Assembly (NCBI GenBank): GCA_026003335.1
Contig: BPHB01000004.1
Coordinates: 2,316 to 66,315 of the forward strand
Source of the DNA: Chitinophagales bacterium
GTDB lineage: Bacteria; Bacteroidota; Bacteroidia; Chitinophagales; CAIOSU01
Length of the DNA stretch: 64,000 bases
Direction of reading: 5' to 3'
The notes beneath the pieces were generated by a model that saw nothing but the letters and a program-made list of their open reading frames with translations, was not told the origin of the DNA and searched no databases. The translations under genes and the position numbers were made by a program. How positions within the stretch are numbered: position 1 is the stretch's first letter; every line of letters starts with the position of its first letter. This document shows positions 1 through 30,199 of this stretch, in pieces.

Positions 1-68
1 TTATTTTCTACCCCAAGCATTAGCTCTGATTTCTGTTTTTCGTTAAGCTTACTCAATAATTCTTCCAT
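1..68 (-). CDS. 5' end of a probable further 26-aa-repeat family protein (runs off the window)
   Basis: ATG at 68 follows the T/A junction motif. It reads MEELLSKLNEKQKSELMLGVEN, which resembles the N-termini of the neighbouring repeat proteins (e.g. FNERQLEQIRLGLEK). Confidence 0.6.
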   Translation of the reverse strand, partial: MEELLSKLNEKQKSELMLGVEN

Positions 69-108
69 AGCCTCTTTTTTTAAAAAAAGAGGGGCTATAA
101 AGTCCCTC

Positions 109-660
109 TTAAATCAAGCCTTTAAATTCTATTAAAAGATTCACTTTCTCTTCCATCTTGGCATAGTGAAGCTCAGGATTGGCGTACCAACTCACATCCA
201 CCCCCGCTTCCAATCCATACCGGATCATCCTCATCTGCTGATAATCAAACTCCGGCTTGGCATAGACACTCACATCTAAGCCCTCTTTTAGCCCAAGCCT
301 GATCTCTTCCATCTGTTTCCAGTTAAACTCCGTCTTGGCATACACGCTTACGTCCACGCCTGCTTGTAACCCTAATCTTATCTCATTCATCTGGTAATAA
401 TCAAACTCCGGCTTGGCATACCAGCTAACATCCACTCCTCTTTTTAGCCCTTGCCTAATTTGCAGCATGTGCAAACAATCGAACTCCGGCTTGGCGTACC
501 AACTGACGTCCAATCCCTCTTCCAGTCCAAGACGAATCTCCTCCATCTGCTGATAATCAAACTCCGGCTTGGCGTACCGGCTGACGTCTAAACCTTTTTT
601 AAGTCCTATTTTAATTTCTTGCCTTTGCATCTCTTTGAAGATATCCAAATCTAATTTCAT
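109..660 (-). CDS. 26-aa tandem-repeat protein (6 repeats)
   Basis: Repeat unit EIRLGLxxGLDVSxYAKPEFxxxQM; C-terminus EFKGLI. Confidence 0.9.
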   Translation of the reverse strand: MKLDLDIFKEMQRQEIKIGLKKGLDVSRYAKPEFDYQQMEEIRLGLEEGLDVSWYAKPEFDCLHMLQIRQGLKRGVDVSWYAKPEFDYYQMNEIRLGLQAGVDVSVYAKTEFNWKQMEEIRLGLKEGLDVSVYAKPEFDYQQMRMIRYGLEAGVDVSWYANPELHYAKMEEKVNLLIEFKGLI

Positions 661-695
661 AGTTTTTTAAAAAAAGAGAGGCTAAGCCTCCCTTT

Positions 696-1244
696 TCAGT
701 AAAGATCCTGATATCCTTTTACTTCTTTTATCCACTCATATATCTCATCATTCCCCACGGGGGTGGAGTCTTGTATGCCATGATACTTTTTGTACAAATC
801 ATAAATCATGTCCTGTATAACTGATATAAAAGCTCCTATATCCCAGTTTAAGCGTAAAACCAGTGTATTGGTTAATTCTATCTTTGCTGCCTGATAATTT
901 GGGTAAAAATCATCAAATTCTAAGGCTTCTTTATGAGGACACGATCCGGTAACGCATTTCATGTATCCATCCTCATCAGGGTAGGTTTGAACTGATACAT
1001 AATCTTTTTTAAACCCTTCTGCAAGAATCTTTTCATGATCGAATTCGATCTCTATCCACGCATATTGCGCCATACAATACCGGCATGGTAATTCGCCTGT
1101 TTTTGTGTAAACGGCTTCCAGGTTATCACACATTTCTTCCAGCTGCTTTTCCAGCTCTAACTCTAAATGGTTGCTCCATGATTTGATATCATTAGCTATT
1201 TCATCCAATTTCAAAATCTCTTTGATTCTTTCTATCTTCTCCAT
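696..1244 (-). CDS. hypothetical protein
   Basis: ORF 696..1310. The start is moved to ATG 1244 (MEKIERIKE) because the longer ORF runs through the junction motif. Confidence 0.75.
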   Translation of the reverse strand: MEKIERIKEILKLDEIANDIKSWSNHLELELEKQLEEMCDNLEAVYTKTGELPCRYCMAQYAWIEIEFDHEKILAEGFKKDYVSVQTYPDEDGYMKCVTGSCPHKEALEFDDFYPNYQAAKIELTNTLVLRLNWDIGAFISVIQDMIYDLYKKYHGIQDSTPVGNDEIYEWIKEVKGYQDLY

Positions 1245-1297
1245 AATCCTTATGCCATTTTTCAAAAAAAAGAGGGGGAGTACCCCTCCCCCCTTTT

Positions 1298-1987
1298 TTA
1301 TAATAAACACAAATAATCAGTTATGTTCTGAGGGGTGTTATCATACATCCATCCCTCATTTTCAATCTCCCTTAGGACATTCTCTGATTCTATTACTTCT
1401 ACTTCTTCGTAGCAATGCACATGGATATATCCCATATAGCCACATTCAATGAAAGCGGAGATATACTCATGTGAGTAAGGGTGATATAAATCGCAGTTAT
1501 TAATAATATAAGTAGGGGTTGAACAGTAATAATCGTCGTCGCAAACCTCGACTTCCACAACCAAGCTGAATTCAAAGAATTCAAGCATATCTTTGCTTTT
1601 AAAGCTAAGACAATCAATTGCCAGTAATTTTAATTGGTTTGATTTTATTTCGTTAACGGACCAGTAACAAAGGGTCCCATCCCCAATGATAAGCTCATCC
1701 CCAGGGGTGATAAGATCATACAATTCAGTCCCCCCCATGACTTTTACTTCATTAAATGTATAATAGTTTTCAGCTACTTCTTTAGTGTAAAAGTGCATGA
1801 TTCCATCATGCACATAGTCTTTGTTGACATACAAGATGTCTTTTTGTAGGTTAATAACCCCTGTGACCGGCCGGTAAAATCTTGGTGCGTAATTATCTAT
1901 CTTTTCCGGAAGGATCAGCAAGTAATCATTATGATACTGCCCTTCTATGGTCACATCTGCTTTGTAAAAGAACAATTTCTTTTCCAT
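1298..1987 (-). CDS. hypothetical protein
   Basis: 229-aa ORF with ATG directly after a junction motif. Confidence 0.8.
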   Translation of the reverse strand: MEKKLFFYKADVTIEGQYHNDYLLILPEKIDNYAPRFYRPVTGVINLQKDILYVNKDYVHDGIMHFYTKEVAENYYTFNEVKVMGGTELYDLITPGDELIIGDGTLCYWSVNEIKSNQLKLLAIDCLSFKSKDMLEFFEFSLVVEVEVCDDDYYCSTPTYIINNCDLYHPYSHEYISAFIECGYMGYIHVHCYEEVEVIESENVLREIENEGWMYDNTPQNITDYLCLL

Positions 1988-2031
1988 AGTTTATTAAAAA
2001 AAGTGTGGGGAGGTATTCCCTCCCACACACT

Positions 2032-2316
2032 TTAATCTTCGAGGCAGTCCTCTTCGTCCTCCTCTTCCTCTCCTTCATTGGCTGCTTCAACTAACTCATC
2101 CCAACTGATTTCATCTATACAAATGAAATCGGCAATAAAGTAATATCTTGAAGTGATCTCATCACATATACTTTCAAGATATTCTTTAAATTCATAAACA
2201 CCGTCAGTGGTAAAATCAAATCCCAATTCTGTAATCCACATGCTTGCAGCCCAAGTGGCATGATTCTTCCATCCGTTGTACCCTTTCATAGTTCTTTTTG
2301 TTTTTTGGTTTGACAT
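2032..2316 (-). CDS. small acidic phage protein with YNGWxNxxTW motif
   Basis: GYNGWKNHATW motif, seen in phage early proteins; acidic tail; ATG adjacent to the junction motif. Confidence 0.75.
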   Translation of the reverse strand: MSNQKTKRTMKGYNGWKNHATWAASMWITELGFDFTTDGVYEFKEYLESICDEITSRYYFIADFICIDEISWDELVEAANEGEEEEDEEDCLED

Positions 2317-2351
2317 TTTTTAAAAAAAACAGGCAGTGGTTGCCTGTTTTT

Positions 2352-2840
2352 TTAAATGAGGCCTTCGTATTCCTCATACATCAAAGCCCAAGTAAGAGCA
2401 TCTTCAAATGTAAGCCCGCTTCTACCTGTATGTTCTTCTGCAATGTCTATCAACACTTTACATATCTCATCCAAGTAGTTCTCCTGAACTTCAATTACAC
2501 GCTTTTGTACGGTATCAATAAATGCCGATATAGATTCATCAATAGAATGCGACATAAGCTGACAATCTATTAATTCCTCTCCCCCGCATTCGAGAAGACG
2601 CTCCCTGTTTATATCACAAAAGACAGCTAAATACCCCTCAAAGTCATAATAACATTCTATTGAGGTAGCTGCCTCTACACATTTTTTACAAGGTTTTTTA
2701 CCTATCTTTTTGATTTCTTTTCTTAGTTTTTCGGCCTCGGCTATCAACCTTGGGTGGATGACATTGTCCCAATAGTTCAAGTCTGTTGCCGCGTAATAAT
2801 CGCGCAACAACTCTTTGATTCTGATCAGGGTGTTGTTCAT
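2352..2840 (-). CDS. hypothetical protein (CxxC; C-terminal EYEGLI)
   Basis: 162-aa ORF bounded by junction motifs; KPCKKC resembles VPCEKC in 6230..6739. Confidence 0.8.
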   Translation of the reverse strand: MNNTLIRIKELLRDYYAATDLNYWDNVIHPRLIAEAEKLRKEIKKIGKKPCKKCVEAATSIECYYDFEGYLAVFCDINRERLLECGGEELIDCQLMSHSIDESISAFIDTVQKRVIEVQENYLDEICKVLIDIAEEHTGRSGLTFEDALTWALMYEEYEGLI

Positions 2841-2877
2841 AGTTTTTTTAAAAAAAACAGGGAATACATGTCCCTGT

Positions 2878-3195
2878 CTACAGTAATCCTTTAAATTCTA
2901 TCAATAGCTTAAGTATATCTTTCATTTTTTTTGCGCTAAACTCCGGCTTGGCATACACACTTACGTCTACGCCCTCTTCTAACCCATACCGTATTTGTGC
3001 CATCTGTTTCCAGTTAAACTCAGGCTTGGCATACCAACTCACATCCAACCCTTCTTTTAGTCCAAACCTGATCTCTTCCATCTGTTCCCACCTAAACTCC
3101 GGCTTAGCGTACCAGCTCACGTCTAATCCTTCTTCCAGTCCAAACTGGATTTGTTGCAACTGATTTTCACCGAAAAGTTCTTTGTTTATCTCCAT
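2878..3195 (-). CDS. 26-aa tandem-repeat protein (3 repeats)
   Basis: 105 aa, same repeat unit. Confidence 0.9.
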   Translation of the reverse strand: MEINKELFGENQLQQIQFGLEEGLDVSWYAKPEFRWEQMEEIRFGLKEGLDVSWYAKPEFNWKQMAQIRYGLEEGVDVSVYAKPEFSAKKMKDILKLLIEFKGLL

Positions 3196-3234
3196 AGCTT
3201 TTTTAAAAAAAACAGAGGGGATGTGCCCTCTGCT

Positions 3235-3786
3235 TTAAATCAATCCTTTAAGTTCTATCAATAGCTTAAGTATATCTTTCATTTTTTTTGCGCTAAACTC
3301 CGGCTTGGCATACCAGCTCACGTCTACGCCCTCTTCTAACCCAATCCGGATTTGTTCCATCTGTCCCCAGTCAAACTCAGGCTTGGCATAGACACTTACG
3401 TCTACGCCCTCTTCCAATCCATACCGGATCTTCCTCATCTGCTGATAATCAAACTCCGGATTGGCATACCAGCTCACATCTAATCCTTCTTCAAGCCCAA
3501 ATCTTATTTGCTCCATCTGATGATTGTCAAACTCCGGCTTGGCATACCAACTCACATCCAACCCTTTTTCAAGACCAAGTCTTATTTCCCTCATCTGTCC
3601 CCAGCCAAACTCCGGATTGGCATAGACACTCACGTCCACGCCTTTCCTAAGACCAAACCTGATCTCTCGCATCTGTTCCCAATTGAAATCAGGCTTGGCA
3701 TACCAGCTTACGTCTAATCCTTCTCCCAGTCCAAGCTGGATTTGTAGTAATTGCTCTCTACCGAAAAGTTTTTCGTTTATCTCCAT
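3235..3786 (-). CDS. 26-aa tandem-repeat protein (6 repeats)
   Basis: 183 aa = 105 + 3x26. Confidence 0.9.
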   Translation of the reverse strand: MEINEKLFGREQLLQIQLGLGEGLDVSWYAKPDFNWEQMREIRFGLRKGVDVSVYANPEFGWGQMREIRLGLEKGLDVSWYAKPEFDNHQMEQIRFGLEEGLDVSWYANPEFDYQQMRKIRYGLEEGVDVSVYAKPEFDWGQMEQIRIGLEEGVDVSWYAKPEFSAKKMKDILKLLIELKGLI

Positions 3787-3823
3787 AGCTTTTTTTAAAA
3801 AAACAGGGGATACATGTCCCTGT

Positions 3824-4609
3824 TTATAGTAATCCTTTAAATTCCATTAATGCTTCTCTTTTCTTTTTCATTTCAAGTGAGCCAAACTCCGGCTTAGCAT
3901 AGACACTCACATCCAACCCCTCTTCCAGTCCAAACCTGATTTGTTCCATCTGTCCCCAGTCAAACTCAGGCTTGGCATAGACACTCACATCTAATCCTTC
4001 TTCAAGCCCAAATCTTATTTGCTCCATCTGATGATTGTCAAACTCCGGCTTGGCGTACCAACTCACATCCAACCCCTCTTTTAGCCCAAACCTGATTTGT
4101 TCCATCTGTCCCCAGTCAAACTCAGGCTTGGCATAGACACTCACATCTAATCCTTCTTCAAGTCCAAATCTTATTTGCTCCATCTGATAATTGTTAAACT
4201 CCGGCTTGGCGTACCAACTCACATCCAACCCTGCCTTCAACCCAAGCCTGAGTTGTACCATCTGCCATTCATTGAATTCCGGCTTGGCGTACCAACTCAC
4301 ATCCACGCCCTCTTTCAAACCATACCTGATCTCTCGCATCTGCTTTGGCATGAATTCCGGCTTGGCATACACACTTACGTCTACGCCCTCTTCTAACCCA
4401 ATCCGGATTTGTTCCATCATCCCCCAAGCAAATTCCGGCTTGGCATAAATGCTTACGTCCAATCCTGCTTCCAATCCAAGACGAATCTCCTTCATCTTTT
4501 CCCAAATAAACTTAGGATCGGTATACCAACTCACATCCAACCCTTTTTCAAGGCCAAGACGTATCTGCTCTAATTGCCGTTCGTTAAAAATGTCTTTGTT
4601 TATCTCCAT
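3824..4609 (-). CDS. 26-aa tandem-repeat protein (9 repeats)
   Basis: 261 aa = 105 + 6x26. Confidence 0.9.
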   Translation of the reverse strand: MEINKDIFNERQLEQIRLGLEKGLDVSWYTDPKFIWEKMKEIRLGLEAGLDVSIYAKPEFAWGMMEQIRIGLEEGVDVSVYAKPEFMPKQMREIRYGLKEGVDVSWYAKPEFNEWQMVQLRLGLKAGLDVSWYAKPEFNNYQMEQIRFGLEEGLDVSVYAKPEFDWGQMEQIRFGLKEGLDVSWYAKPEFDNHQMEQIRFGLEEGLDVSVYAKPEFDWGQMEQIRFGLEEGLDVSVYAKPEFGSLEMKKKREALMEFKGLL

Positions 4610-4649
4610 AGCTTTTTTTTAAAAAAACAGAGGGGATGTGCCCTCTGCT

Positions 4650-5591
4650 TTAAAGCAATCCTTTAAGTTCTATCAATAGCTTAAGTATATCTTCCATCTT
4701 TTTTGCGCTAAACTCCGGCTTGGCATACACACTTACGTCTACGCCCTCTTCTAACCCAATCCGGATTTGTTCCATCTGTCCCCAATTGAAATCAGGCTTA
4801 GCATAGACACTCACATCCACGCCCGCTTCCAATCCAAACCGGATTTCTCTCATACTGCCCCAACTAAACTCTTTTTTGGCATACCAAGTAATGTCTAACC
4901 CCTTTTCCAGCCCATAACGTATCTCCCGCATTTGTTCCCAGCTAAACTCCGGTTTGAAATATATACTTACATCCAATCCTTTTTCCAACCCCAGTCGGAC
5001 TTCTTCCATCACCTTCCAAAAATACACTTTGTTAGCATACACACTAACATCTACCCTTGCTTTAAGACCATGCCGTATTTGAAACATCTGAGTGCTGTTA
5101 AACTCCGGCTTGGCATACCGGCTCACGTCCAAGCTTTCTTCCAGCCCAAGTCTTATTTCCTTCATTTGCCATTCATCGAATTCCGGCTTGGCATAAATGC
5201 TCACATCCAGGTCTTTTCCAAGACCAAGTCTTATTTCCATCATCTGTCCCCAGTTAAACTCCGGCTTGGCATACACACTTACGTCTACGCCCTCTTCTAA
5301 CCCAATCCGGATTTGCTCCATCTGTCCCCAATTGAAATCAGGCTTGGCATACCAACTCACATCCAACCCTTTCTCAAAACCAAGTCTTATTTCCCTCATC
5401 TGTCCCCAGCCAAACTCCGGCTTAGCATAGACACTCACGTCCAATCCCTCTTCCAGTCCAAGACGGATCTCCTCCATCTGCTGATAATCAAACTCCGGCT
5501 TGGCATACCAGCTTACGTCCAATCCTTCTTCCAGTCCAAACTGGATTTGTTGCAACTGATTTTCACCGAAAAGTTCTTTGTTTATCTCCAT
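4650..5591 (-). CDS. 26-aa tandem-repeat protein (11 repeats)
   Basis: Start at ATG 5591 (MEINKELFGENQ, identical to the 2878..3195 N-terminus); 313 aa = 105 + 8x26. Confidence 0.9.
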   Translation of the reverse strand: MEINKELFGENQLQQIQFGLEEGLDVSWYAKPEFDYQQMEEIRLGLEEGLDVSVYAKPEFGWGQMREIRLGFEKGLDVSWYAKPDFNWGQMEQIRIGLEEGVDVSVYAKPEFNWGQMMEIRLGLGKDLDVSIYAKPEFDEWQMKEIRLGLEESLDVSRYAKPEFNSTQMFQIRHGLKARVDVSVYANKVYFWKVMEEVRLGLEKGLDVSIYFKPEFSWEQMREIRYGLEKGLDITWYAKKEFSWGSMREIRFGLEAGVDVSVYAKPDFNWGQMEQIRIGLEEGVDVSVYAKPEFSAKKMEDILKLLIELKGLL

Positions 5592-5627
5592 AGCTTTCAC
5601 AGAAAAAAGAGAGACAAGACAGTCTCT

Positions 5628-6188
5628 CTAACCTAATAGGTCAAAATACAGAGATAACTCTTCTGCATAATTGAGTACCACCTGCACAAACCCCTCCTGC
5701 CCGGTCAACTCTTTGTATGCACGAGTCATCACCGGAATGATTTGTGACTTAAAATCACTTGCCGCAAAAACAAGCCTATTCCCAAACTTATTTTTGATAT
5801 CGGCAAGATATCTTTCATTTTTAAGTGATTTCAACGAAGGGTCATTGTAATAGGGCAAAGACCCCTCGATACACCCTACGCAGAAATCATGCTTGATGCA
5901 TGATTTCATCAATGAAAGCTTGCTTTTAATAAGCGATACATCCAGCTGCCCGTTATCAGTAATGATACTGATATGAAAGGCGTCTAATATTGCCTCAGGG
6001 CAACCGCTGCGTAGATCATCTTCATCTACTCTTATACTGTGTTTTTTCTTTACCTCCTCTATGACCTTTGAAAAGGCCTTATCAAGGAGTACCTTGTGCG
6101 CTTCCCCTCTACGTTCTACATCGCTCGCGAGGAGATAGTATTTGTAGAGGGTGTAAATTTCTTTTTTTAGAATGAAGTTATCTTTCAT
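5628..6188 (-). CDS. hypothetical protein
   Basis: 186-aa ORF bounded by junction motifs. Confidence 0.8.
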   Translation of the reverse strand: MKDNFILKKEIYTLYKYYLLASDVERRGEAHKVLLDKAFSKVIEEVKKKHSIRVDEDDLRSGCPEAILDAFHISIITDNGQLDVSLIKSKLSLMKSCIKHDFCVGCIEGSLPYYNDPSLKSLKNERYLADIKNKFGNRLVFAASDFKSQIIPVMTRAYKELTGQEGFVQVVLNYAEELSLYFDLLG

Positions 6189-6229
6189 AATCTATTTCTT
6201 AAAAAAACAGGGGCTTGACATAACCCCGG

Positions 6230-6739
6230 CTATATCAAGCCCCTGTATTCCCAAATGGAATAAGCCCATTCGAGAATTTCGTCTTTTTTCCAAGGGCCCT
6301 TCTTCTTTAAGCCCTTATAATACCCTAATAAGAGGTCGTAAGCCTCTTTCTTATATTCATCCATGATAGGGTCTACCATTTCATAGGCGTCACTACGAAC
6401 ACAACGCATAATCTGATCTACGTCTTTATCATGGATGTAGTTATAAGGGCTTCTATTATGACTGCAATTCCCCTTGGCACAGTTATCCACACGCTCCCAC
6501 CCGAAAGAGTAAAGCGTATAATGGAAGCCTATGCGTACGGGGTCCCATTCTGCGGTGATCTTCACCGCAGATAAAATACACTTCTCACAAGGAACTTTGC
6601 CTCTTTTAAAGGCAATGTCCCTTACTTTCTCATGCACATCGCGGAAAAGACCTCTTATATTCATGGTCTCCGCATAACATGCCGCCGCATAGTATTTAAT
6701 ATATGCGGCAATAACTTCTTTATAAATGTCTAATTCCAT
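6230..6739 (-). CDS. hypothetical protein (CxxC; C-terminal EYRGLI)
   Basis: 169-aa ORF; KYYAAA...VPCEKC layout resembles DYYAAT...KPCKKC in 2352..2840. Confidence 0.8.
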   Translation of the reverse strand: MELDIYKEVIAAYIKYYAAACYAETMNIRGLFRDVHEKVRDIAFKRGKVPCEKCILSAVKITAEWDPVRIGFHYTLYSFGWERVDNCAKGNCSHNRSPYNYIHDKDVDQIMRCVRSDAYEMVDPIMDEYKKEAYDLLLGYYKGLKKKGPWKKDEILEWAYSIWEYRGLI

Positions 6740-6777
6740 AGTTTTTTTAAAAAAAAGGGGTTACCCCCCTTTGATGG

Positions 6778-8010
6778 TCATTCTACATGAACAACCATCT
6801 TCGCTTTCTTTACCCCCGGCTTTGCACCCGTATACATCACAATCCCTACCGTCTTGCCGGGAAATTCTAATACATCATCTGAGTCGAGATAGCCATCAGT
6901 CAATACAATCACGACGTCATGCTTCTTGGCTATCTGCTTCAGATGGAGGCCGAGCTGAGTACCGGACCCCCTGGGAATAGAGGCTTTACGGATGTCTTTT
7001 ATTTTCTCGTACCCCACAATCTCGGTGTCTACATAGTACATATGTGTAGTGACACCTTTGATCAGCACCTGGCCAAGCAGGCGTTTGATCTCATCCTCAC
7101 TCATAGAGAGAGAGACATCCAGCAGCACAGCCATCTCACGGGAGATACGCTGCACACCAGGCAGCTCGCGCATATTGCGCCGGTTGGGACGCCCCCATGT
7201 GTCTATGGAGTCACGGCTGCCTAAGGCATGCTTTAGCAATGCCTTCACCCGATTGGCCCATCTGCCGGGCTTAATCGATGTGATAGACAGCGTGTCCCAT
7301 ACACCAGAGCCGGTCCCGGCAGCCTGAGCTACCTGACTTTTCATCCTTTCGGCTACCGCCGCGGCTTCGGCTGCCGTCGCGTCATCCATAGGCATATGAG
7401 TGTCCGTAGACCCCTCAGTTCCTTGAAGACGCTTAAGCATACCCTTGGCAGTCTCTCTTCCTCCATTTGAAGAAGAAGAGCCACCACGGGAGGCCGAACC
7501 TTTGTTGTCCTCCTCTTCATTCCCCTCACCATCGCCATCCCCTTCCTGCTGCATAGAGTCCTGCTCCTTACGAAGAAACTCATACAGTTCTTCAAAGAGC
7601 CACTCGCCTTCATAGTCAGAAGGCATACGGCATCCTCCTTCAATGAATTGAAGGTCATTAGGGTAGCGCTCAAGTAAGGAGTCATTGATGATGCAGTCCT
7701 GTGCAATATTCGACAGGAACGCATCTCTGTGTCCTACTCTGAGCAAATGAATATTGCTCAAATGCATCGCTTCATGCAAAAGCAAGAAACGAAGCTGAGC
7801 ATCATTTAACTCAGAGGATCTTGGTCCTATATGGAGGACAAATCCCTTCCTCCGTTTGTCGTAACTCACCGCACCATAAGGGACACTCTCATCGTACCTC
7901 TTATCACAAAGGGACAATAAGAGCCCCAGCGCACGGTAGTCTTCGCTCCGCGGTGACGACACTATCCCAAGAATAGTATCGTACACGCGGTTTAAAATGT
8001 CTAATTCCAT
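6778..8010 (-). CDS. metallopeptidase-like (HExxH) + VWA domain protein (DUF2201-like)
   Basis: LLHEAMH, NIAQDCIIND, MIDAS-like LLDVSLS, and LTDG. Start at ATG 8010 (MELDIL) after the junction motif. Confidence 0.8.
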   Translation of the reverse strand: MELDILNRVYDTILGIVSSPRSEDYRALGLLLSLCDKRYDESVPYGAVSYDKRRKGFVLHIGPRSSELNDAQLRFLLLHEAMHLSNIHLLRVGHRDAFLSNIAQDCIINDSLLERYPNDLQFIEGGCRMPSDYEGEWLFEELYEFLRKEQDSMQQEGDGDGEGNEEEDNKGSASRGGSSSSNGGRETAKGMLKRLQGTEGSTDTHMPMDDATAAEAAAVAERMKSQVAQAAGTGSGVWDTLSITSIKPGRWANRVKALLKHALGSRDSIDTWGRPNRRNMRELPGVQRISREMAVLLDVSLSMSEDEIKRLLGQVLIKGVTTHMYYVDTEIVGYEKIKDIRKASIPRGSGTQLGLHLKQIAKKHDVVIVLTDGYLDSDDVLEFPGKTVGIVMYTGAKPGVKKAKMVVHVE

Positions 8011-8066
8011 ACTTTTTTCAAAAAAAAGGCATAGGGACATAGTCCCCGCCTTTCAAACCTGCCATT

Positions 8067-9116
8067 TTAAATGGAGGAGATAATTTTCTTCAGTGTGTTT
8101 CTAAACCGATTATCCCCACCATTAAATTCACGGCTTGCCTGCCCCAAGACCTCCTTAGCCGGTTGTGCCATATTCTTGGCCTTGGTTAAGATGCCGCCGA
8201 CCAAGTCAATAGGCATCTTCTCGCAGGCACGGACGAGAAGTATGGCCTCTTTCTTGGTCACCTTCTCTCTACCCTCCATCCAATCCATGACACCTGTCGC
8301 CACATTAGCGGCGTTGGTGTCATTAATCATATCGATTAGCTTGGGGTCTTTCAGTATATTGACCCAAGTAATCTTACTCATCTCTTCAACCCAGGTGCCA
8401 AATGCAACGGCAGCCCGGGTACCAATTATACCCTTCAATTCCTCAATGCCCAACTCTATATGTTGAGACATTGAGATTACGAATTCCCAGCTTCTGGGGC
8501 TGGGAGCCCCAAATTCATCCCTCATTTCGGGCGCATTGAAATATTTGCGCTCCGACTTCAAAAACGTAACGACCATATTATCGCCGTACTTTTTAATTAT
8601 CCACTGAGACCATGCATCAAAGTCAAGGTCCCAGCGAATTGTCCAGAGACGTTCCCTCAAAGCCGAAGGCATCTCCTCCACAACAGACTCTGTGCCATCC
8701 TCTTCACCCAAGTTGCCGGTTGCGGCAATCTTGGCTTTTCCTGATATTTGGCGACCCTGCCACTCACGCTCATTAAAGAGCTGGTAGAAGGTCACCATCG
8801 TTTTCGGATGAGCCGCATTGAGCTCATCGAAAATGAACAGCGTGGGTTCTTTGCACTCCAGCATCTCCGTTATGATGGGAGAAGCCATGTATTCAAATGA
8901 CTTCTCCCCTAATTTCGGGATGCCTACAAAGTCCTCAGGTGGAGCCTGTACCGGCACCACACGGACGTTCCATCCCTTTGCGTGAGCTATCTCACGAAGG
9001 ATGGCACTTTTACCTGTACCCGGTGCTCCTACAAGGAAAGGCACCGGAACATAGCAATTGCCTTGTACTTCAAGCAAGGCGCTGATCTGGTTTCTTAAGT
9101 TTGTTTTCATGCTCAT
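8067..9116 (-). CDS. MoxR-like AAA+ ATPase
   Basis: Walker A GAPGTGKS, Walker B FIFDELN, ATGN, ALRER and PSPRSW. Adjacent to a VWA gene. Start at ATG 9116 after the junction motif. Confidence 0.85.
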   Translation of the reverse strand: MSMKTNLRNQISALLEVQGNCYVPVPFLVGAPGTGKSAILREIAHAKGWNVRVVPVQAPPEDFVGIPKLGEKSFEYMASPIITEMLECKEPTLFIFDELNAAHPKTMVTFYQLFNEREWQGRQISGKAKIAATGNLGEEDGTESVVEEMPSALRERLWTIRWDLDFDAWSQWIIKKYGDNMVVTFLKSERKYFNAPEMRDEFGAPSPRSWEFVISMSQHIELGIEELKGIIGTRAAVAFGTWVEEMSKITWVNILKDPKLIDMINDTNAANVATGVMDWMEGREKVTKKEAILLVRACEKMPIDLVGGILTKAKNMAQPAKEVLGQASREFNGGDNRFRNTLKKIISSI

Positions 9117-9157
9117 ATTTGTTTTTTCAAAAAAAACCCGCCATAAGGCGGGGCGCA

Positions 9158-9310
9158 TCACCCTCTTGCCATTTGGATGATGCGGGTCATTATATGGATC
9201 GGGGCATATACGATGGCAAACCCGATCCACCCCATGACTATATATCGCCATGCCATACAGGCAATGGCGATAATTAATATAATTAATATAGATAAAATCA
9301 TCTTTCTCAT
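9158..9310 (-). CDS. 50-aa hydrophobic membrane peptide (not in the ORF track)
   Basis: Read by hand: MRKMILSILIILIIAIACMAWRYIVMGWIGFAIVYAPIHIMTRIIQMARG*. It fills the space exactly between two junction motifs. Confidence 0.7.
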   Translation of the reverse strand: MRKMILSILIILIIAIACMAWRYIVMGWIGFAIVYAPIHIMTRIIQMARG

Positions 9311-9587
9311 AGTTTATCTAAAAAAAGTTGCCTATGCAACTATCTTGCCCCTTACATAAGTACCGGTCAATCTAATCTATATATTTATCTCATCATCGCG
9401 GACCGGCAAGAATATTTTGGGCTCCCACAAAAAAAGGCTATCAATCACGATAGCCGTGCCGGTATTCACTGCTTGATTATACGGCGTGCGTGCGCCCATG
9501 TTGCCATGAACGTCCCGGCTCACGCCTCTTTACCCGCCAGCCGCAATGCAATGTCAAGCTCATCACAATGCGACCGAGCAACGTGCT

Positions 9588-9887
9588 TTACCGGGCTACC
9601 ACGTTCACCTGATAGGTGACAGGTGAGCCGGCGATTTCACGCACGCGCTCAACGGGGAGGTCTTTCCCTCTGTCCTCGGGCGTCAATGCCAAGGGCACCT
9701 CAGTGACCCGTTCGGCAAGTGCCGCGAGGTGGAGAGGCAACACCCCGATGACGTGACGACCGCGTACATCGTCAGCACTTGCGTGCGACAGTACGGGCGT
9801 GTCAGGGGTAATCAGCCCAATCTCCAAGAGGTAGTCAACCAGACCCTGATGGCGGGTGACGACGATAGTGTCAGTCATCCCATCCAT
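9588..9887 (-). CDS. csx16: Csx16-like protein (putative cyclic oligoadenylate ring nuclease)
   Basis: VVTRHQGLVDYL...DVRGRHVIGVLPLHLAA...PEDRGKDL matches the recalled Csx16 pattern (TRHxGA...VIGxLPxxLAA...RGxEL). Confidence 0.7.
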   Translation of the reverse strand: MDGMTDTIVVTRHQGLVDYLLEIGLITPDTPVLSHASADDVRGRHVIGVLPLHLAALAERVTEVPLALTPEDRGKDLPVERVREIAGSPVTYQVNVVAR

Positions 9888-10133
9888 TTTATCTAAGGTC
9901 CTAACTACCGGTGCGTTGAAATAGGAGACGCACCCCTCCCACCGAAATCATCTTTTTAAAAAAATATCTCTAATTCATTTTCGTTGTCCCACCAATAGTT
10001 GGCTATGCAACTACCCGGTGACAGCGATGCCCCCTTGCATGCTCTGTGGTTCTCCACGCCCACCATCACCACCGCTTGTCACCCCTGTCCATCACCACGC
10101 CGGTGGTTATGGATAGGTAGGCGGGGAAAAAAA

Positions 10134-10547
10134 GCGCCGGTGACAGGGGAGTATCGCGAATCACCCTGTCCCGGCGACCGGCGTGTGCACCCGCCGGCAC
10201 CAGGTCCTTGCCTACCTGGCGTTTTTTTACATCCACGTCCTTCCCGGGTACAGCAGTGGGCAAGGTCTCAACGGTTGAACCGTCACTGCTACTGCCGGGT
10301 GCAGCCATCCCGTACACATGCGTGCAGGGATGGTACCCCCATGAGTGCTCAGACTTACGCGGTGGCCAGCCGACCAATGCTTCTTGCGGCGAAGACATTG
10401 GCTCCTTCTCACCGGGTTTTACGTAACCGGTCCCATGGGCGACCGGTTACAACCATCGTTATGCCGATGGTACAGCTTCCCCATCCCGGGCGAAGCAACC
10501 CCATGCCCCATGTCGCTGTACGTGCGTCAGCCGACAGGGGCAGCCTG
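10134..10547 (-). ncRNA. putative structured ncRNA, copy B
   Basis: No credible ORF; bounded by junction motifs; shares conserved blocks and covarying stems with 10667..10985. Strand inferred from the junction orientation. Confidence 0.55.
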
Positions 10548-10561
10548 TTTTTTAAAAAAAA

Positions 10562-10653
10562 GGCCGGCGCCTATGCCGGGGGCCTGGGCGACAAGGAAAG
10601 GAGTCGCTTGCGCCCACCGGCACACATCCTTCTTTTAATGGTAGTTGTGCCGG
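10562..10653 (-). ncRNA. putative ~90-nt small RNA between two junction motifs
   Basis: Stems ccggcaca/tgtgccgg and tgggcg/cgccca plus a terminal hairpin; no ORF. Confidence 0.35.
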
Positions 10654-10666
10654 TTTTTTAAAAAAA

Positions 10667-10985
10667 GCGGGGATGCCGCTCGCCCAACGGCAGAGCCCCG
10701 CACACCAGTCCATCCTCTCCCCAATGCGATGGTAGGACGAAATCCCATCCATGTGGGGTACATGGGCACCTCCCGGGCGGTGCCGCACTCCCATGAGCGC
10801 TCGGTTTTACGGGTGGCCAGCCCAACCTATGCAATGCATAGGGAACCTTCTTCCACGGTTTTACGCAGCTCATCCCATGGGCGACTCGCTGCAACCCGTT
10901 CCTACGGACGGGGTCTACCTTGCGGGCATTTGGCAGACACGTGCGTGCCCCTGCCAAACCCGGCCTGCCCCAATAAGGGGCATTC
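10667..10985 (-). ncRNA. putative structured ncRNA, copy A
   Basis: Homologous to copy B with compensatory stem changes; bounded by junction motifs. Confidence 0.55.
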
Positions 10986-11022
10986 TTTTTTGAAAAAAAA
11001 CCGGGCATAGCCCGGGCCTGGG

Positions 11023-11331
11023 TCAGTCCTTGTTGGACTTGACCCAGTCTATGATTTTCTCGCCTATGCGCTCCCAGACGCAGGTGGCATAGGCGTCAAG
11101 GTAGAGTTCCCAAGCTTCCTTGGGAGCTCCATTTAACCAACCCGGGACTTCAAGTCCCGGCAATTCAAACACCCCCTTGTCGAAGGGGGTGGGGGTTGCA
11201 TATATAGATTTCCCGTTTGTATACATGGACGGGGAATCTATATTGACCCACCGAACGAGGGTCATAAACCCTCGTTTGGGGTCTCTATCGAAATCTTCGA
11301 TAGAGACCCCAACGGCGTTTATATACATCAT
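11023..11331 (-). CDS. hypothetical protein, first gene of the leftward array
   Basis: ATG 11331 (MMYINAVG) lies directly after a junction motif. Confidence 0.7.
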   Translation of the reverse strand: MMYINAVGVSIEDFDRDPKRGFMTLVRWVNIDSPSMYTNGKSIYATPTPFDKGVFELPGLEVPGWLNGAPKEAWELYLDAYATCVWERIGEKIIDWVKSNKD

Positions 11332-11565
11332 ATTTTTTTTCAAAAAAAACCCCCGTGCATAGGGGTTTTTGAAAAAAAACCGGGCGTAGCCCGGTGGTGC
11401 GAGGTGTGGGTCAGAAGTCTATTCGAGACTTCTGACCTCACACCTCTTAGAGGTGCGAACTCTCACCTCAAAGTTACTGCTGAGCTGCGAAGCTACCTGC
11501 TGACGCAAGTAGCTGTGCCGCTGCGCTCACGCCGTCACGGACGGCGGCGTGAGCGCGGGGTCTCT

Positions 11566-11742
11566 CCGAAGTGGGGACGTCCGTAGTGGACGCCCCCGTT
11601 TCGGGCGCCCCCGAAGTGGGGACGTCCGTAGTGGACGCCCCCGTTTCGGGCGCCCCCGAATAGTCGGGGGCACCCTTCGGGTGCCCCCGAATAGTCGGGG
11701 GCCCCCGTTTCGGGTGCCCCCGAAGTGGGGCACCCGTAGTGG
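11566..11742. repeat. GC-rich palindromic tandem array (about 15-bp period; exact 45-bp duplication)
   Basis: 11566-11610 is identical to 11611-11655 (ccgaagtggggacgt ccgtagtggacgccc ccgtttcgggcgccc), followed by ccgaatagtcggggg x2 and variants. Confidence 0.9.
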
Positions 11743-11830
11743 ATTACGTTTCCGTTTCGTACTCATACTGCTTTTAGGGGGGGGTTTTGTAACAGTCCCT
11801 TGAAGCGCTGCGTATAAAAAATAAAAAAAT

Positions 11831-11860
11831 AAAAAAGGGAGGGGTATTGGATCCCCTCCC
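11831..11860 (-). terminator. intrinsic terminator downstream of 11884..12396
   Basis: gggagggg/cccctccc stem followed by a T-tract on the - strand. Confidence 0.7.
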
Positions 11861-11883
11861 GGCGACACGCGATGGTGACTGTT

Positions 11884-12396
11884 TTATGATGAGAGGCGTG
11901 CTTCTGCGATCACGTATTCATCGACCGTGTTGGTAAGGGTGATGGCTGGTTTTTGGTATTCTTCAAGCAGGGTATTGAGGAGGAAGTCAGGGACGTTCTT
12001 TTTGCAGGCGTAGTGGGCGATGCCGTACAGTTTGTTGAGGAGGTCGTAGGGTGGAGCTTCGTAGTCGCCGTATTCGTCTGTTGACTGCCGGATGACAGAC
12101 AGCAGCTTATTTAGTGCGGCATTGAATGCCCGTGCGTTATATCCTTTTTTCAGTACGATACGGATGAAGGTAATGATGGAAGTGCGTGCCTGTGATTTCA
12201 TGACGTCTTTGATGTCTTCTTTCATCCCGTCAATGACCTTGCTTATTGCTATGGCATCCTCTATGTTATGGTCTTTTATTTCGGGCACGTAGAAGTTAAT
12301 ATGATCAAACAGTTTCGGACGTTTAGCCCCTGTCTTGGCGGCTATGTAGTCGTTATACAGCCCGAACATAAGATATGGCGTCCTTGCATTGATCAT
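11884..12396 (-). CDS. hypothetical protein
   Basis: 170-aa ORF with an A-rich upstream region and a terminator downstream. Confidence 0.75.
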   Translation of the reverse strand: MINARTPYLMFGLYNDYIAAKTGAKRPKLFDHINFYVPEIKDHNIEDAIAISKVIDGMKEDIKDVMKSQARTSIITFIRIVLKKGYNARAFNAALNKLLSVIRQSTDEYGDYEAPPYDLLNKLYGIAHYACKKNVPDFLLNTLLEEYQKPAITLTNTVDEYVIAEARLSS

Positions 12397-12882: not shown

Positions 12883-14442
12883 ATGAAAAATATATTTTCA
12901 GGCATTACCAGAGATACGCTGGAGAAGTTATCCCCTTCCCTTGTAGTAATGGATAACAGAGTGGTTGGCGACACTCACTATATGTGGTTACGTCCCAAGA
13001 TAGCCGATTTGGAGGAGTTTATTTTAAGCAAGGTAGAGAATGGAGACAGCGGGTTAAAGGCTGTTTCAAGAGAGTATTTATTAGCCGGCTATGAGGATGT
13101 GATGGACTCATACGGATATCTTAACGACTTGATCTATGCTGATATTCAGAATGTACACGGTCTTGATCGTCTCATGGTAGCCATCTCGGCCAATTATGCA
13201 AACACGCTTGAAATACCATTTGAATTATCTTTTTTATTCAGGGCCAAGAGAGCTTTAATATATATAGACCACACTTTATTTAAGAAGAACTACCTTCATA
13301 ACGTAGGCATATACAGTGGTCTTGGTCGCGAGTGTGTCATATACCCTTATTTGAACATAAACAATTTGTTTGGAGGCAAGCTTGAAGAGCTGACCATCAT
13401 GAGTGATGGTCCGGTAGCCGTAAGCACCGGACGTCATGTCTATGTACCACGCCTGCTTGCAAATGGCACTACTTATGGAGGCACTGACTCTTATTATGCT
13501 AACGTATTAACTGTCAAGGGGTGCAATACACAGACGCCCGTATTGCTTCCTGATGCGATAGGGTATAGCCCTAACGCATTCCCTTACAACTATGCCCATT
13601 TAGGTGTATTAAGCAAGGAGGTCCCTTACAGCCCATTGGATGCGGATGTGCCTTATGAGATAAGATTAAGCCCTGCCGGTTCAAACTACGACTATGCCGC
13701 ATTGAACACCAATCTTTATTACCATTATTGGGGTATGGATTCAGCTTATTTGACCCCTTTGATAGAGAAGGATAAATACTTGATGGGTTATTATTACGGC
13801 ATGCCCAACGGGGAACGCTCTGCCACGAACACCATCCTTGATGACGGCTTACATGTCTGCTTACCAAACCGTGCGGTAACCAATGCGACCCCATTCCAAA
13901 CCAATCTCTTAGTACCGGTCTATGACCTGTCAAGAGAAGACGGCATCCCCGGTGCTTGTGTGTATATAGCTATCGAATTCAAGCGCAGGGGCAAGTATTC
14001 AAACCTGTATTCTAATGGCACTTACAGGAACCCTGTCTGGGCGTCCGGTATAATACACACGCTTTTACCCGATGACGGAGACCCATATTCATTTAAGTTA
14101 GCCCCTTACAACAGCTTTGCCGCCGGATCTTACGATGTGCAAACGCGTATTAACCATGGACCCGTTGACGCCCCTTATACCGTCAAGGCAGACAGCAAGT
14201 ATGATGAACGTGGTGAATATGTGTGGATAAAGATGAAGCATGGCGATACGTCTGTGTTATATGACGTATCCATCCCTTTATCAAGTTGGTCCGGGCGAAA
14301 TGACTATCGTGCCGGAGGCATCAGTTATGTGTTGCATGAGGTGATCATCACGGCAGAAGAGCTTGACAAGGAGCAGGAGAATAAGCTAATCAGCTCAGTA
14401 AATAAATTATGGGGGACGGCATACCCATTGCGTGATGAATAA
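12883..14442 (+). CDS. hypothetical protein (Tyr/Gly/Asn-rich, possibly virion-associated)
   Basis: 519-aa ORF followed by a terminator. Confidence 0.75.
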   Translation: MKNIFSGITRDTLEKLSPSLVVMDNRVVGDTHYMWLRPKIADLEEFILSKVENGDSGLKAVSREYLLAGYEDVMDSYGYLNDLIYADIQNVHGLDRLMVAISANYANTLEIPFELSFLFRAKRALIYIDHTLFKKNYLHNVGIYSGLGRECVIYPYLNINNLFGGKLEELTIMSDGPVAVSTGRHVYVPRLLANGTTYGGTDSYYANVLTVKGCNTQTPVLLPDAIGYSPNAFPYNYAHLGVLSKEVPYSPLDADVPYEIRLSPAGSNYDYAALNTNLYYHYWGMDSAYLTPLIEKDKYLMGYYYGMPNGERSATNTILDDGLHVCLPNRAVTNATPFQTNLLVPVYDLSREDGIPGACVYIAIEFKRRGKYSNLYSNGTYRNPVWASGIIHTLLPDDGDPYSFKLAPYNSFAAGSYDVQTRINHGPVDAPYTVKADSKYDERGEYVWIKMKHGDTSVLYDVSIPLSSWSGRNDYRAGGISYVLHEVIITAEELDKEQENKLISSVNKLWGTAYPLRDE

Positions 14443-14458
14443 TAAGCTTCATTGCAGG

Positions 14459-14492
14459 CGGGGGTGTAGTGATGCTGCACCCCTGTTTTTTT
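14459..14492 (+). terminator. intrinsic terminator
   Basis: ggggtgtag/ctgcacccc stem followed by T7. Confidence 0.75.
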
Positions 14493-14562
14493 ATCTGTTA
14501 AGACTTGTAATTTTGGTAAATTTACTGTATATTTATAAAAGTAAAACTAAAATTGCAATAAT

Positions 14563-15333
14563 ATGAAAAAGGTTTGTTTGTTGGTATGGTTATTCGTTTG
14601 CCCGCTGGTTTCTTTTAGTCAGACCGATGGTGATTTCAGCCTTGAAGGGCTCATAATCCGGTGTTTGGATTCATTGGATAAGGACACTGTTTTGTTGTTC
14701 TTTGAAGAAGACCATTATCCGGAATTGCCTTTTGATGAATCCTTTTACGACTATATAAATGACTGTTACCTTTATTATTCAAGGGTTGTCCCTATTGTTT
14801 ATGTGTTTGCGACAAGGGATGGTAGCGGTAATGTATTGATCTTTGACTATGGGTATTTGTTGCCTACTGAGTTTTACTTCCTGACGATGGAAGGTGTCTT
14901 GGATATTCATTGCTTAATCAGTCATGACGGACACAGTGTGTATTGGATATACCGGACTGAGGTGGTTGACCAGGGCAAACTACCGCCACAACTGAGGGTT
15001 GATTCAAAAGGGTCATTTTACTTACAGTACGGAGACAGGAAGGTATCATTAAACCGGACGTCGGATATGGAGTCCGGTTATGCAAGTTCTGCTTTGGTGT
15101 GGAATTACCCCTCGCTTTTCCTGTGGCGCAAGTTTGACATACGCAAGGCTGAGGACAGGGACTGTCTTCACTTCCTTCTGAACCTTCCGGTAGGATATAA
15201 GATTTACAATGTAGATGATGCAGGAGTGGAGACGGAGGTTTTCAAAAGGAAGTATACTCTTGACAGGTTTCAGGAGTATATGTGCCGCCTATACTTCTTT
15301 TGGGAAAACAATTACTCAGCCTTGTCTAAATAA
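14563..15333 (+). CDS. putative exported protein with signal peptide
   Basis: MKKVCLLVWLFVCPLVSFS-Q, a Bacteroidota-style signal peptide with Gln at +1. Confidence 0.7.
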   Translation: MKKVCLLVWLFVCPLVSFSQTDGDFSLEGLIIRCLDSLDKDTVLLFFEEDHYPELPFDESFYDYINDCYLYYSRVVPIVYVFATRDGSGNVLIFDYGYLLPTEFYFLTMEGVLDIHCLISHDGHSVYWIYRTEVVDQGKLPPQLRVDSKGSFYLQYGDRKVSLNRTSDMESGYASSALVWNYPSLFLWRKFDIRKAEDRDCLHFLLNLPVGYKIYNVDDAGVETEVFKRKYTLDRFQEYMCRLYFFWENNYSALSK

Positions 15334-29885: not shown

Positions 29886-30199
29886 AGATAAAGTATATAA
29901 CGGATTATAGTGACGGAGGTATCGTCTTAGGCAAATCTCATGAGGAAGGAGGTGTCCCTACATATGCAAAAGGGCGGCTTATCGCAGAAATAGAGGGCGG
30001 TGAGCTTATATTGCCTTCAGACGTATCCAAAAGGGTAGATGCCCTTGTTGCCCGTTATTTGGAGGAAGAAGATGAAGGTGTATTGAAGCAGATAGGCATC
30101 GAAGTCTATTCTGCAGTAAGGGACATCTTAAACAAGATGCCTCTCTCGCTGAAAGAAAGGATGAAAAAAGGTAAAACACGAAAAATAAAAGAGTCATGA
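29882..30199 (+). CDS. small cargo-region protein
   Basis: GKSHEEGGV...EIEGGE motif. Confidence 0.65.
   Translation: MKIKYITDYSDGGIVLGKSHEEGGVPTYAKGRLIAEIEGGELILPSDVSKRVDALVARYLEEEDEGVLKQIGIEVYSAVRDILNKMPLSLKERMKKGKTRKIKES

Follow-up and report, generated by a model that had tools for sequence, protein, structure and literature searches.

The 86-kb contig C4 represents a crAss-like phage from a hot spring, which carries within its small-gene block a family of repeat genes that exchange sub-unit tracts of DNA in register. This mosaicism is new, as is a short hydrophobic C-terminal tail common to 16 of the block's 19 proteins, including most of those unrelated to the repeat family; the repeat family itself is already in print as MhoF/MhoH. 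The repeat proteins are predicted to be acidic helical solenoids, and we give an even chance to the reading that they form a recombining set of protein binders directed against host proteins in early infection.

Five complete repeat genes lie on the minus strand of the window (the whole 64,000-nucleotide stretch of C4 under analysis): g1 (109..660; 183 aa, six units, with the shared tail), g2 (2878..3195; 105 aa, three units), g3 (3235..3786; 183 aa, six units), g4 (3824..4609; 261 aa, nine units), and g5 (4650..5591; 313 aa, 11 units). All five are intact, and successive unit anchors are 26 aa apart without exception, which confirms the gene and unit counts of the preliminary description as well as its claim that lengths differ by exact multiples of 26 aa. 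A sixth gene had been anticipated at the window edge. In this assembly, the site holds a 28-aa stub ORF (1..68, minus strand, with its end 18 nt left of the window) that comprises an N-cap and the tail with zero repeats, but its start codon (66-68) reads in frame into repeat units in contigs of two other samples (runs X3 and X5). Outside the window, C4 encodes five further paralogues (C4 coordinates 1-780, 816-1379, the degenerate 83187-83489, 85133-85768, and 85808 to the contig end), which brings the total to about ten in one co-oriented block.

The scaffold of the unit is nearly fixed, with G8, D14, and Y18 invariant in all 57 units extracted from C4. Variation resides, as described before, in positions 24-26 (the three residues after PEF) and position 7 (the residue after IR), to which the equally variable positions 3 and 17 have to be added; position 24, the first residue ahead of the predicted helix, is mostly D, N, or S. 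Among 46 helices, 31 different variable triplets and 43 different signatures occur. Position 25 is aromatic in 55% of 56 C4 units, position 17 in 45%, and position 7 in 34%, and the aromatic share at position 25 amounts to 38-55% in every homologue group. The conserved acidic residues E4, E10, and D14, plus E22 in C4, are accompanied by the conserved basic residues R6 and K20, and the net charge per unit is -1.3 to -2.3 over all groups (-1.4 in C4), with a pI of 4.7-5.0.

The repeat genes contain 44 exact tracts of at least 30 nt, all of them in register. The 38 that connect different genes contrast with 0.49 on average, and five at most, in 200 codon-column shuffles, and 73% of the DNA of g2 lies in exact tracts of at least 24 nt common to other repeat genes. 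Other samples connect the pieces differently, keeping the register in 13 of 13 joints tested; this strain comparison relies on contigs placed on the window, because scans with the terminase, the ATPase, the vWA protein, and one of its distant homologues yielded no close relatives. In two 244-kb phages, the members of an orthologue pair (112 versus 138 aa) are exactly one unit apart. Shuffling by recombination, as proposed at the outset, is borne out by the in-register tracts and the rearranged joints, but the 78-bp unit is not the exchange module: none of 56 units is identical in DNA to another, and tract ends occur at most unit positions, with breakpoints anywhere inside the unit. The exact unit order may partly be an assembly choice, since none of the contigs listed for the probable source run covers a whole repeat gene.

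With an input of 112 sequences, the g4 protein is modelled at a pLDDT of 97.8 and a pTM of 0.89; a single-sequence fold with beta-alpha units (pLDDT 63.5) was dropped in favor of this model. Each modelled unit has one 12-residue helix (positions 25-10) and a 3-residue turn, consistent with the helical solenoid postulated before. Variability is periodic along the helix (permutation p = 0.006), and positions 25, 26, 3, 7, and 10 are predicted to form one exposed, W/Y/F-rich helix face, as had been expected of the variable residues; both statements refer to ideal helix geometry rather than to model coordinates.

At the codon level, the scaffold is under purifying selection (pN/pS 0.05). The variable face displays a pN/pS of 1.39 (36/139 versus 39/210, p = 0.11; 14 non-independent pairs) and, for 30 pairs from a second pair of phages, of 1.14, while all-pairs pN/pS is saturated (pS 0.78) and was left out of any selection claim. 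The variable sites are indistinguishable from neutral, relaxed constraint accounts for their ratios equally well, and the positive selection looked for at these codons did not emerge. Variable-site ratios not significantly above one would also be expected from a tolerated expansion, an alternative we regard as rather unlikely: A recombination-prone scaffold would perform one generic job (dosage, spacer, or non-specific sink), and its variable sites would be unconstrained surface that is shuffled without value for specificity. The repeat-less stub in one sample agrees with such an expansion, and in-register gene conversion is expected from sequence similarity alone. However, the W/Y/F bias of the exposed face is strong across unrelated elements, and the five window genes are all intact. 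Moreover, the repeat was amplified independently in several unrelated mobile elements: one 244-kb phage has ten loci with 49 distinct repeat ORFs in all, plasmid pFMC has nine such ORFs within 40.7 kb, and a 6.6-kb contig piece has five.

PHROG matches on C4 comprise a terminase and a major head protein of crAss type, and the 15 best phage matches listed for the terminase come mainly from crAss-like records, with identities of 25-27%. Two ORFs of 2677 and 6155 aa are present, and D-x-D-x-D motifs were found as candidates for the catalytic DFDxD motif of the giant virion RNA polymerase. No match to C4 was found among the 69 scored CRISPR spacers of the binned genome (best, five mismatches), and the repeat occurs in 0 of 40 related genomes.

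Given its position, the small-gene block is probably expressed early in infection. It contains, all on the minus strand, a DUF2201 metallopeptidase-vWA protein with HExxH and DxSxS (6778..8010) and a MoxR-type AAA+ ATPase (AAA_5; 8067..9116), both without the shared tail. A Csx16 (Cas_VVA1548) homologue (9588..9887, minus strand), which probably counters type III CRISPR as a ring nuclease (PMC12409355, in part), is located inside the same block as the repeat genes. A second paralogue family with an invariant CxxC...C...H pattern is encoded on the minus strand at 696..1244 (variant tail), 2352..2840, and 6230..6739 (both with the shared tail); neither Pfam nor Atlas gives a match for this family, and just eight are found in 1.84 billion representatives. 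The tail is absent from the repeat proteins of other phages. Genes of the block are separated by boundary elements in which a hairpin, a T-run, and an A-run precede the ATG of the next gene, as at 3196..3234 (minus strand), with elements of like kind at 69-108, 661-695, 2841-2877, 3787-3823, and 4610-4649 and a variant at 5592-5627. The hairpin reaches -6 kcal/mol or lower in 20 of 21 elements; the hairpins differ in sequence, and the ATG lies within ~10 nt after the T-run/A-run. Inspection of 28 upstream regions by eye revealed no conserved host-type promoter in these elements.

Beyond C4, homologues of the repeat number 896 and 1969 in two length classes. Plasmids and other phages carry the repeat, and it is also part of polyvalent proteins and of FapA fusions encoded on chromosomes. 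The repeat has no family in Pfam, PHROG, NCBIfam, or the PDB. Searches of the repeats with Pfam, PHROG, NCBIfam, and PADLOC gave sub-threshold or spurious matches only, and Atlas matches fell into unnamed clusters with weak "Organ specific" labels. The repeat ORFs of pFMC, which include two 300-aa members matching g4, are situated among SSB, zincin, and JAB genes with an adjoining relaxase, a setting that resembles leading-region anti-defence islands (PMC11541004, in part). Among the 120 longer homologues listed, 71 contain FapA and 23 contain polyvalent-protein domains (ArdC-N, MPTase, LPD1, LPD25, PBECR4, RadC, YodL, or Toprim). An HD-domain gene lies directly downstream at all three FapA loci checked, and this FapA and HD setting is compatible with a protein-interaction module.

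Ocr and ArdA are DNA mimics that block host DNA-binding enzymes, and the conserved acidic residues of the repeat could likewise imitate the phosphate backbone as a decoy, with the variable residues tuning the target. The conservation of E4, E10, and D14 (E22 in C4) and the net negative charge in every group are in keeping with this role, as are the leading-region and polyvalent-protein contexts, which are rich in anti-restriction genes (partly from PMC11541004, in part). Yet the charge (-1.4 per C4 unit) is moderate, with R6 and K20 balancing part of it, and chromosomal FapA fusions are ill-suited to a mimic, making this explanation distinctly unlikely.

If the proteins are instead recombining protein binders, the aromatic face would stack along the solenoid into a binding surface whose shape is altered by recombination and unit number. 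Targets would be host defence or regulatory proteins, and the common tail might serve as a docking or turnover signal. The helical model with its periodic variability, the negative charge in all groups, the in-register recombination, the Csx16 homologue in the block, the pFMC and FapA/HD contexts, the fusions to polyvalent-protein domains, the aromatic variable face, and the constraint on the scaffold count for the binder reading. Against it count the best PDB fold rows, which are weak but belong to nucleic-acid binders (TALE, PPR), the fusion partners that act on DNA (several, including ArdC-N and Toprim), the variable-face ratios, and the lack of the tail in repeat proteins of other phages. 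A more specific version, to which we attach a small likelihood, is a putative adaptor library: The solenoids and the Cys/His family would capture host defence proteins, and the tail would dock on the MoxR ATPase and the vWA-metallopeptidase at the block head, or on a host protease, so that the captured protein is unfolded or destroyed. If true, phages would possess an equivalent of ankyrin-F-box adaptors, and the 26-residue repeat would be a naturally occurring scaffold for binders.

The TALE/PPR-like logic suggested by the preliminary description would have each unit read one base via its variable residues, with recombination reprogramming the DNA or RNA target. PPR proteins vary at positions 35 and 5, and their units are net acidic too; the pair formed here by the N-cap and the fifth residue after it recalls these positions. 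The top Foldseek PDB rows are weak matches to TAL effectors (E 7e-3, TM 0.26, rmsd 15.6 Å), a designed PPR appears, again weakly, in the second VIA row (Z 7.9, rmsd 19.2 Å), further TALE rows have Z 6.7-6.8 and rmsd 14-17 Å, and MhoF/MhoH have been threaded on TALE/BurrH (PMC6813540, in part). Nevertheless, such a code is improbable for these acidic proteins. The 26-aa unit is modelled as one long helix with no hairpin, a PDB sequence search to E 1 gave nothing, and Pfam TALE and PPR do not match. Furthermore, the 46 helices, with their 31 triplets and 43 signatures, do not follow a four-state alphabet, the six-residue loop insert that holds the RVDs proposed for MhoF (PMC6813540, in part) is absent from the 26-aa unit, and the three-unit g2 would read three bases only.

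It is highly improbable that the shuffling is mostly an assembly artefact of mixed strains and repeats: Source-run contigs do break within repeats, and C4 may mix strains at the stub because the stub-bearing piece has a depth of 8.6 versus 21-30.5 for adjoining pieces, but single contigs of 206-449 nt are near-exact to the window inside repeat genes, mosaic tracts terminate within units, contigs from other studies have in-frame joints of their own, and the 112- and 138-aa orthologues of the 244-kb phages differ by exactly one unit.

The repeat is a widespread module without a model, amplified by unrelated phages, plasmids, and ICEs in small-gene regions. With proteins of 3 to 11 units from a thermophilic habitat, C4 offers a compact set made by nature in which ligands can be sought and the "TAL-like" label tested, and the common tail gives simple access to the question of docking versus degradation. 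If tunable binders, the proteins would be pointers to host defence targets and supply a small repeat scaffold.

MhoF/MhoH are the only prior descriptions that we found; neither the crAss-like expansion nor the tail appeared in the literature covered, which included Fig S4 of PMC6813540 as its one supplement. In the main text of PMC5512222, "repeat" occurs twice, neither time for this family, and the "26-residue repeat" of a Lactococcus plasmid paper refers to surface lipoproteins (PMC6458302, in part). MhoF and MhoH of Mycoplasma hominis ICEHo were named "TAL-like" from Phyre2 threading alone on TALE/BurrH, and in BLAST they match best to a Finegoldia protein of 300 aa (Meygret et al, 2019; PMC6813540, in part). 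By eye against the C4 profile, MhoF (supplementary Fig S4, PMC6813540) fits the scaffold Q-M-x-x-I-R-x-G-L-x-x-G-x-D-[VI]-S-x-Y. MhoH is multi-copy, with 0-3 copies (PMC7648426), and is expressed (PMC12228374, in part). Like the C4 proteins, MhoF/MhoH stand alone on a mobile element and have a C-terminal motif in common with unrelated neighbors (PMC6813540, in part). In contrast, their unit spans 32 aa with a loop insert, whereas the C4 unit is six residues shorter and lacks the proposed RVD loop, and they reside on an ICE rather than a lytic-type phage, in 1-3 rather than about ten copies and with a different tail.

The boundary elements resemble the PeSL promoter-terminator cassettes of T4-like phages (PMC2839356 and PMC4122927, both in part), in that almost every small gene of a variable region is set apart from the next by a terminator-like hairpin, but the C4 hairpins are mutually different and no promoter was seen by eye. 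Homologous repeats also stand beside ArdC-N, MPTase, LPD1, LPD25, PBECR4, RadC, and YodL in polyvalent proteins, a class known from conjugative elements and phages (Iyer et al, 2017), whereas the window proteins are repeat-only, without ArdC-N, MPTase, or LPD fusion.

TAL effectors, BurrH, and PPR proteins also combine tandem helical repeats and a fixed scaffold with few variable residues. However, TAL effector and BurrH units are two-helix hairpins of 33-35 residues whose RVD sits in the loop between the helices, while the variable sites of the 26-aa unit lie on the helix, and the PPR unit is a 35-residue helix-turn-helix whose positions 5 and 35 carry a small polar code, compared with 43 signatures among the 46 helices here. 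Ankyrin repeats differ by their 33 aa and two helices, and Pfam Ank does not match; DARPins and viral ankyrins do appear as weak fold rows (E 0.01 or worse), and a G-x-D-V turn closes both the second ankyrin helix and the helix of the 26-residue unit. In the way they might work, the C4 proteins are analogous to ankyrin/DARPin and poxvirus ankyrin-PRANC proteins, in which a variable aromatic face on repeats is combined with a constant C-terminal docking element.

The five intact minus-strand genes g1 to g5 (window 109-660, 2878-3195, 3235-3786, 3824-4609, and 4650-5591) encode 6, 3, 6, 9, and 11 units, as first described, and all unit spacings are exactly 26 residues. Five further paralogues lie outside the window on the same contig, C4. 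Across 57 units, the scaffold proved nearly fixed, with G8, D14, and Y18 invariant, and the variation expected after PEF and after IR was recovered: positions 24, 25, 26, and 7 are among the most variable sites, as are positions 3 and 17. A model of g4 built from a 112-sequence alignment (pLDDT 97.8, pTM 0.89) predicts that each unit forms one 12-residue helix (positions 25-10) followed by a 3-residue turn. On ideal helix geometry, variability along this helix is periodic, with positions 25, 26, 3, 7, and 10 at 0-100° and conserved positions at 180-340° (p = 0.006). Model and periodicity thus agree with the anticipated helical solenoid displaying its variable residues on one helix face. Position 24, mostly D, N, or S, immediately precedes the helix and probably acts as its N-cap. 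We regard the feature as real and hold, with moderate confidence, that it most likely represents a set of protein-binding solenoids, which would be reshuffled by in-register recombination and deployed against host proteins early in infection.

The scaffold is maintained by selection. In 14 close unit pairs, pN/pS amounts to 0.05 for the scaffold and 1.39 for the variable face (p = 0.11); 30 best-match unit pairs from two other phages yield 0.22 and 1.14, respectively. Diversifying selection on the variable face is possible, and a merely tolerated expansion of the repeat family appears conceivable, if rather improbable. The units are net acidic in all homologue groups (pI 4.7-5.0), and aromatic residues are frequent at positions 25, 17, and 7. 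A role as DNA mimic is unlikely.

The TALE/PPR-like logic initially suggested was not supported, and a nucleic-acid reader of this type is doubtful. A Foldseek search of the g4 model against the PDB returned nothing at E up to 0.001; TAL effectors occupy the top rows, with TM 0.26 and an rmsd of about 15 Å. Each unit has a single predicted helix and is missing the insert that carries the proposed RVDs (the variable pair of TAL effector repeats) in the published description of MhoF (PMC6813540). In VIA-align, a designed protein scored Z 9.2, a PPR 7.9, and the LRR variant 1lrv 7.6; these values fall inside the range that the tool calls common for repeats. The only two strong viral fold matches are uncharacterised siphovirus proteins.

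Recombination between the repeat genes is homologous and in register. No DNA-identical unit pairs exist among 56 units, and synonymous sites between units are saturated on average (pS 0.78). Nine genes compared nevertheless share 44 exact tracts of at least 30 nt, all in register, of which 38 join different genes; shuffling codons within columns of the concatenated units 200 times gave a mean of 0.49 and a maximum of 5. Exact tracts of at least 24 nt common to another gene cover 52% to 73% of each window gene, and the divergent paralogue at C4 816-1379 shares none with the other repeat genes. Tract starts are spread over 20 of the 26 positions in the unit. Thus, shuffling by recombination stands, with patches rather than whole 78-bp units as its currency. 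Of two orthologue pairs compared between a pair of related 244-kb phages, one shows a length difference of exactly one unit. Among the joints listed in contigs of other samples, all 13 with intervening letters shown keep register, an outcome favored by alignment to repeats. Other samples also show a different arrangement: in a contig from X3 and X5, two sequencing runs of one study, the start codon at the window edge runs directly, in frame, into repeat units, and the preceding gene terminates in g4's C-cap rather than that of g1. The probable sixth gene suspected there is a 28-aa stub on C4 and enters repeats in these runs. In the probable source run, the stub-bearing contig has a depth of 8.6 versus 21-30.5 in neighboring pieces, depth being no share of cells; the assembly may mix strains here, and an artefactual origin of the shuffling as a whole is very improbable.

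By its sequence, C4, an 86,145-bp contig of which the window covers bases 2316-66315, is a crAss-like phage. A hot-spring metagenome that contains this stretch may be its source. PHROG searches found a terminase and a major head protein, and the best phage matches of the terminase, among those listed, are mostly crAss-like records (25-27% identity). Two giant ORFs encode 2677 and 6155 aa; an adjoining ORF of 422 aa (window 30196-31464) contains three nearly exact copies of a ~50-aa segment. The 1620 bp of window 13701-15320 match contig C21 from this bin at 98% identity, and proteins distantly related to the 6155-aa one are encoded on contigs C14 and C18, pointing to further related phages in the bin. 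C4 is interrupted within a same-strand repeat gene at either end. Relatives of genes from both ends appear in cluster listings on one 31,716-bp contig, which fits a circular map; consequently, the repeat genes would form one co-oriented small-gene block of about 17 kb. Its layout suggests early expression. The block's opening genes encode a Csx16 homologue (window 9588-9887) and a pair of MoxR AAA+ ATPase and DUF2201 metallopeptidase-vWA protein (window 6778-9116). Csx16 is described as a cA4 ring nuclease family (PMC12409355), and the phage homologue is likely a ring nuclease against type III CRISPR. The binned genome has RAMP genes near a CRISPR array on contig C3.

Upstream of nearly every block gene, a hairpin, T-run, A-run, and ATG follow in this order (window 69-11380, minus strand, and C4 83944-85790). 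Within 16.9 kb we counted 21 such elements, of which 20 have a hairpin and 17 an ATG within 10 nt; host strands totalling 6.9 Mb contain 4. The block elements are terminator-like and appear to leave no space for a host promoter; they may serve the virion polymerase as signals for start, stop, or processing. In phi14:2, early genes are reportedly made by the virion polymerase and share no motif upstream (bioRxiv 2020.03.07.982082). Credible ORFs are few in window 9900-11900, a GC-rich (57%) candidate origin or non-coding RNA region at the GC-skew switch, which has several hairpin/T/A elements lacking an ATG as well as short tandem repeats.

On C4, the repeat proteins share the C-terminus E-[FL]-K-G-L-[LI]. 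A nearly identical ending occurs in the six paralogues (162-182 aa; window 696-1244, 2352-2840, 6230-6739; C4 83450-85090) of a second, unrelated family with invariant CxxC...C...H, which has no match in Pfam or Atlas and 8 among 1.84 billion representatives. Compared between both families, the final six residues show 44% identity and the preceding six 4%. Only 41 of 92 residues common to both tails use the same codon, which argues for protein-level constraint. The pattern [YFL]-x-x-[LI]-[LIY]-stop, derived from the block genes themselves, ends 16 of 19 minus-strand block ORFs of at least 90 aa and 9 of 2664 ORFs of at least 150 aa on three large host contigs. One of the second family's two distant homologues matches it, and the other fails at the last residue. 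Repeat proteins of other phages lack the tail, which therefore appears specific to the phage group of C4. Hypothetical docking of the tail to the MoxR-vWA pair, itself tailless, would allow a captured protein to be unfolded or destroyed; the virion-assembly role that Iyer et al (2021) proposed for this type of pair in jumbo phages (PMC7824862) counts against this idea.

No curated family covers the repeat in the databases searched, yet the family is already in print, uncharacterised, and the crAss-like phage form is a new variant. At least 896 homologues have similar length, and 1969 occur among longer proteins; 120 listed longer ones include polyvalent-protein domains in 23 and FapA in 71. 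In all three loci checked, an HD-domain gene follows the Lachnospiraceae-type FapA/DUF342 gene, whose repeat is N-terminal (L087:4965-7806, L101:4995-8192, L134:4944-8631); two of these HD-domain genes carry a receiver domain. Finegoldia plasmid pFMC (NC_010371.1 9762-50505) has 9 repeat ORFs within 40.7 kb, where SSB, zincin, and JAB genes also lie, beside the relaxase; many repeat proteins are encoded there in a 35-kb array of co-oriented small genes, which a type I-E cas operon bounds. At least 49 repeat ORFs were counted in one 244-kb phage and five on a contig of about 274 kb, and five tandem repeat genes with a common 80-residue N-terminal domain lie on a contig assigned to a Woesearchaeota bin (L076:3201-6631). 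Mycoplasma prophage-like loci contain 26-aa versions. The Mycoplasma hominis ICE proteins MhoF and MhoH were named TAL-like via Phyre2 threading (Meygret et al, 2019; PMC6813540). In its published sequence, MhoF has the same scaffold as the C4 unit but six extra loop residues, and its proposed RVDs sit within this insert. MhoF and MhoH also possess a C-terminal motif of their own, different from the C4 tail and likewise common to unrelated ICE proteins.
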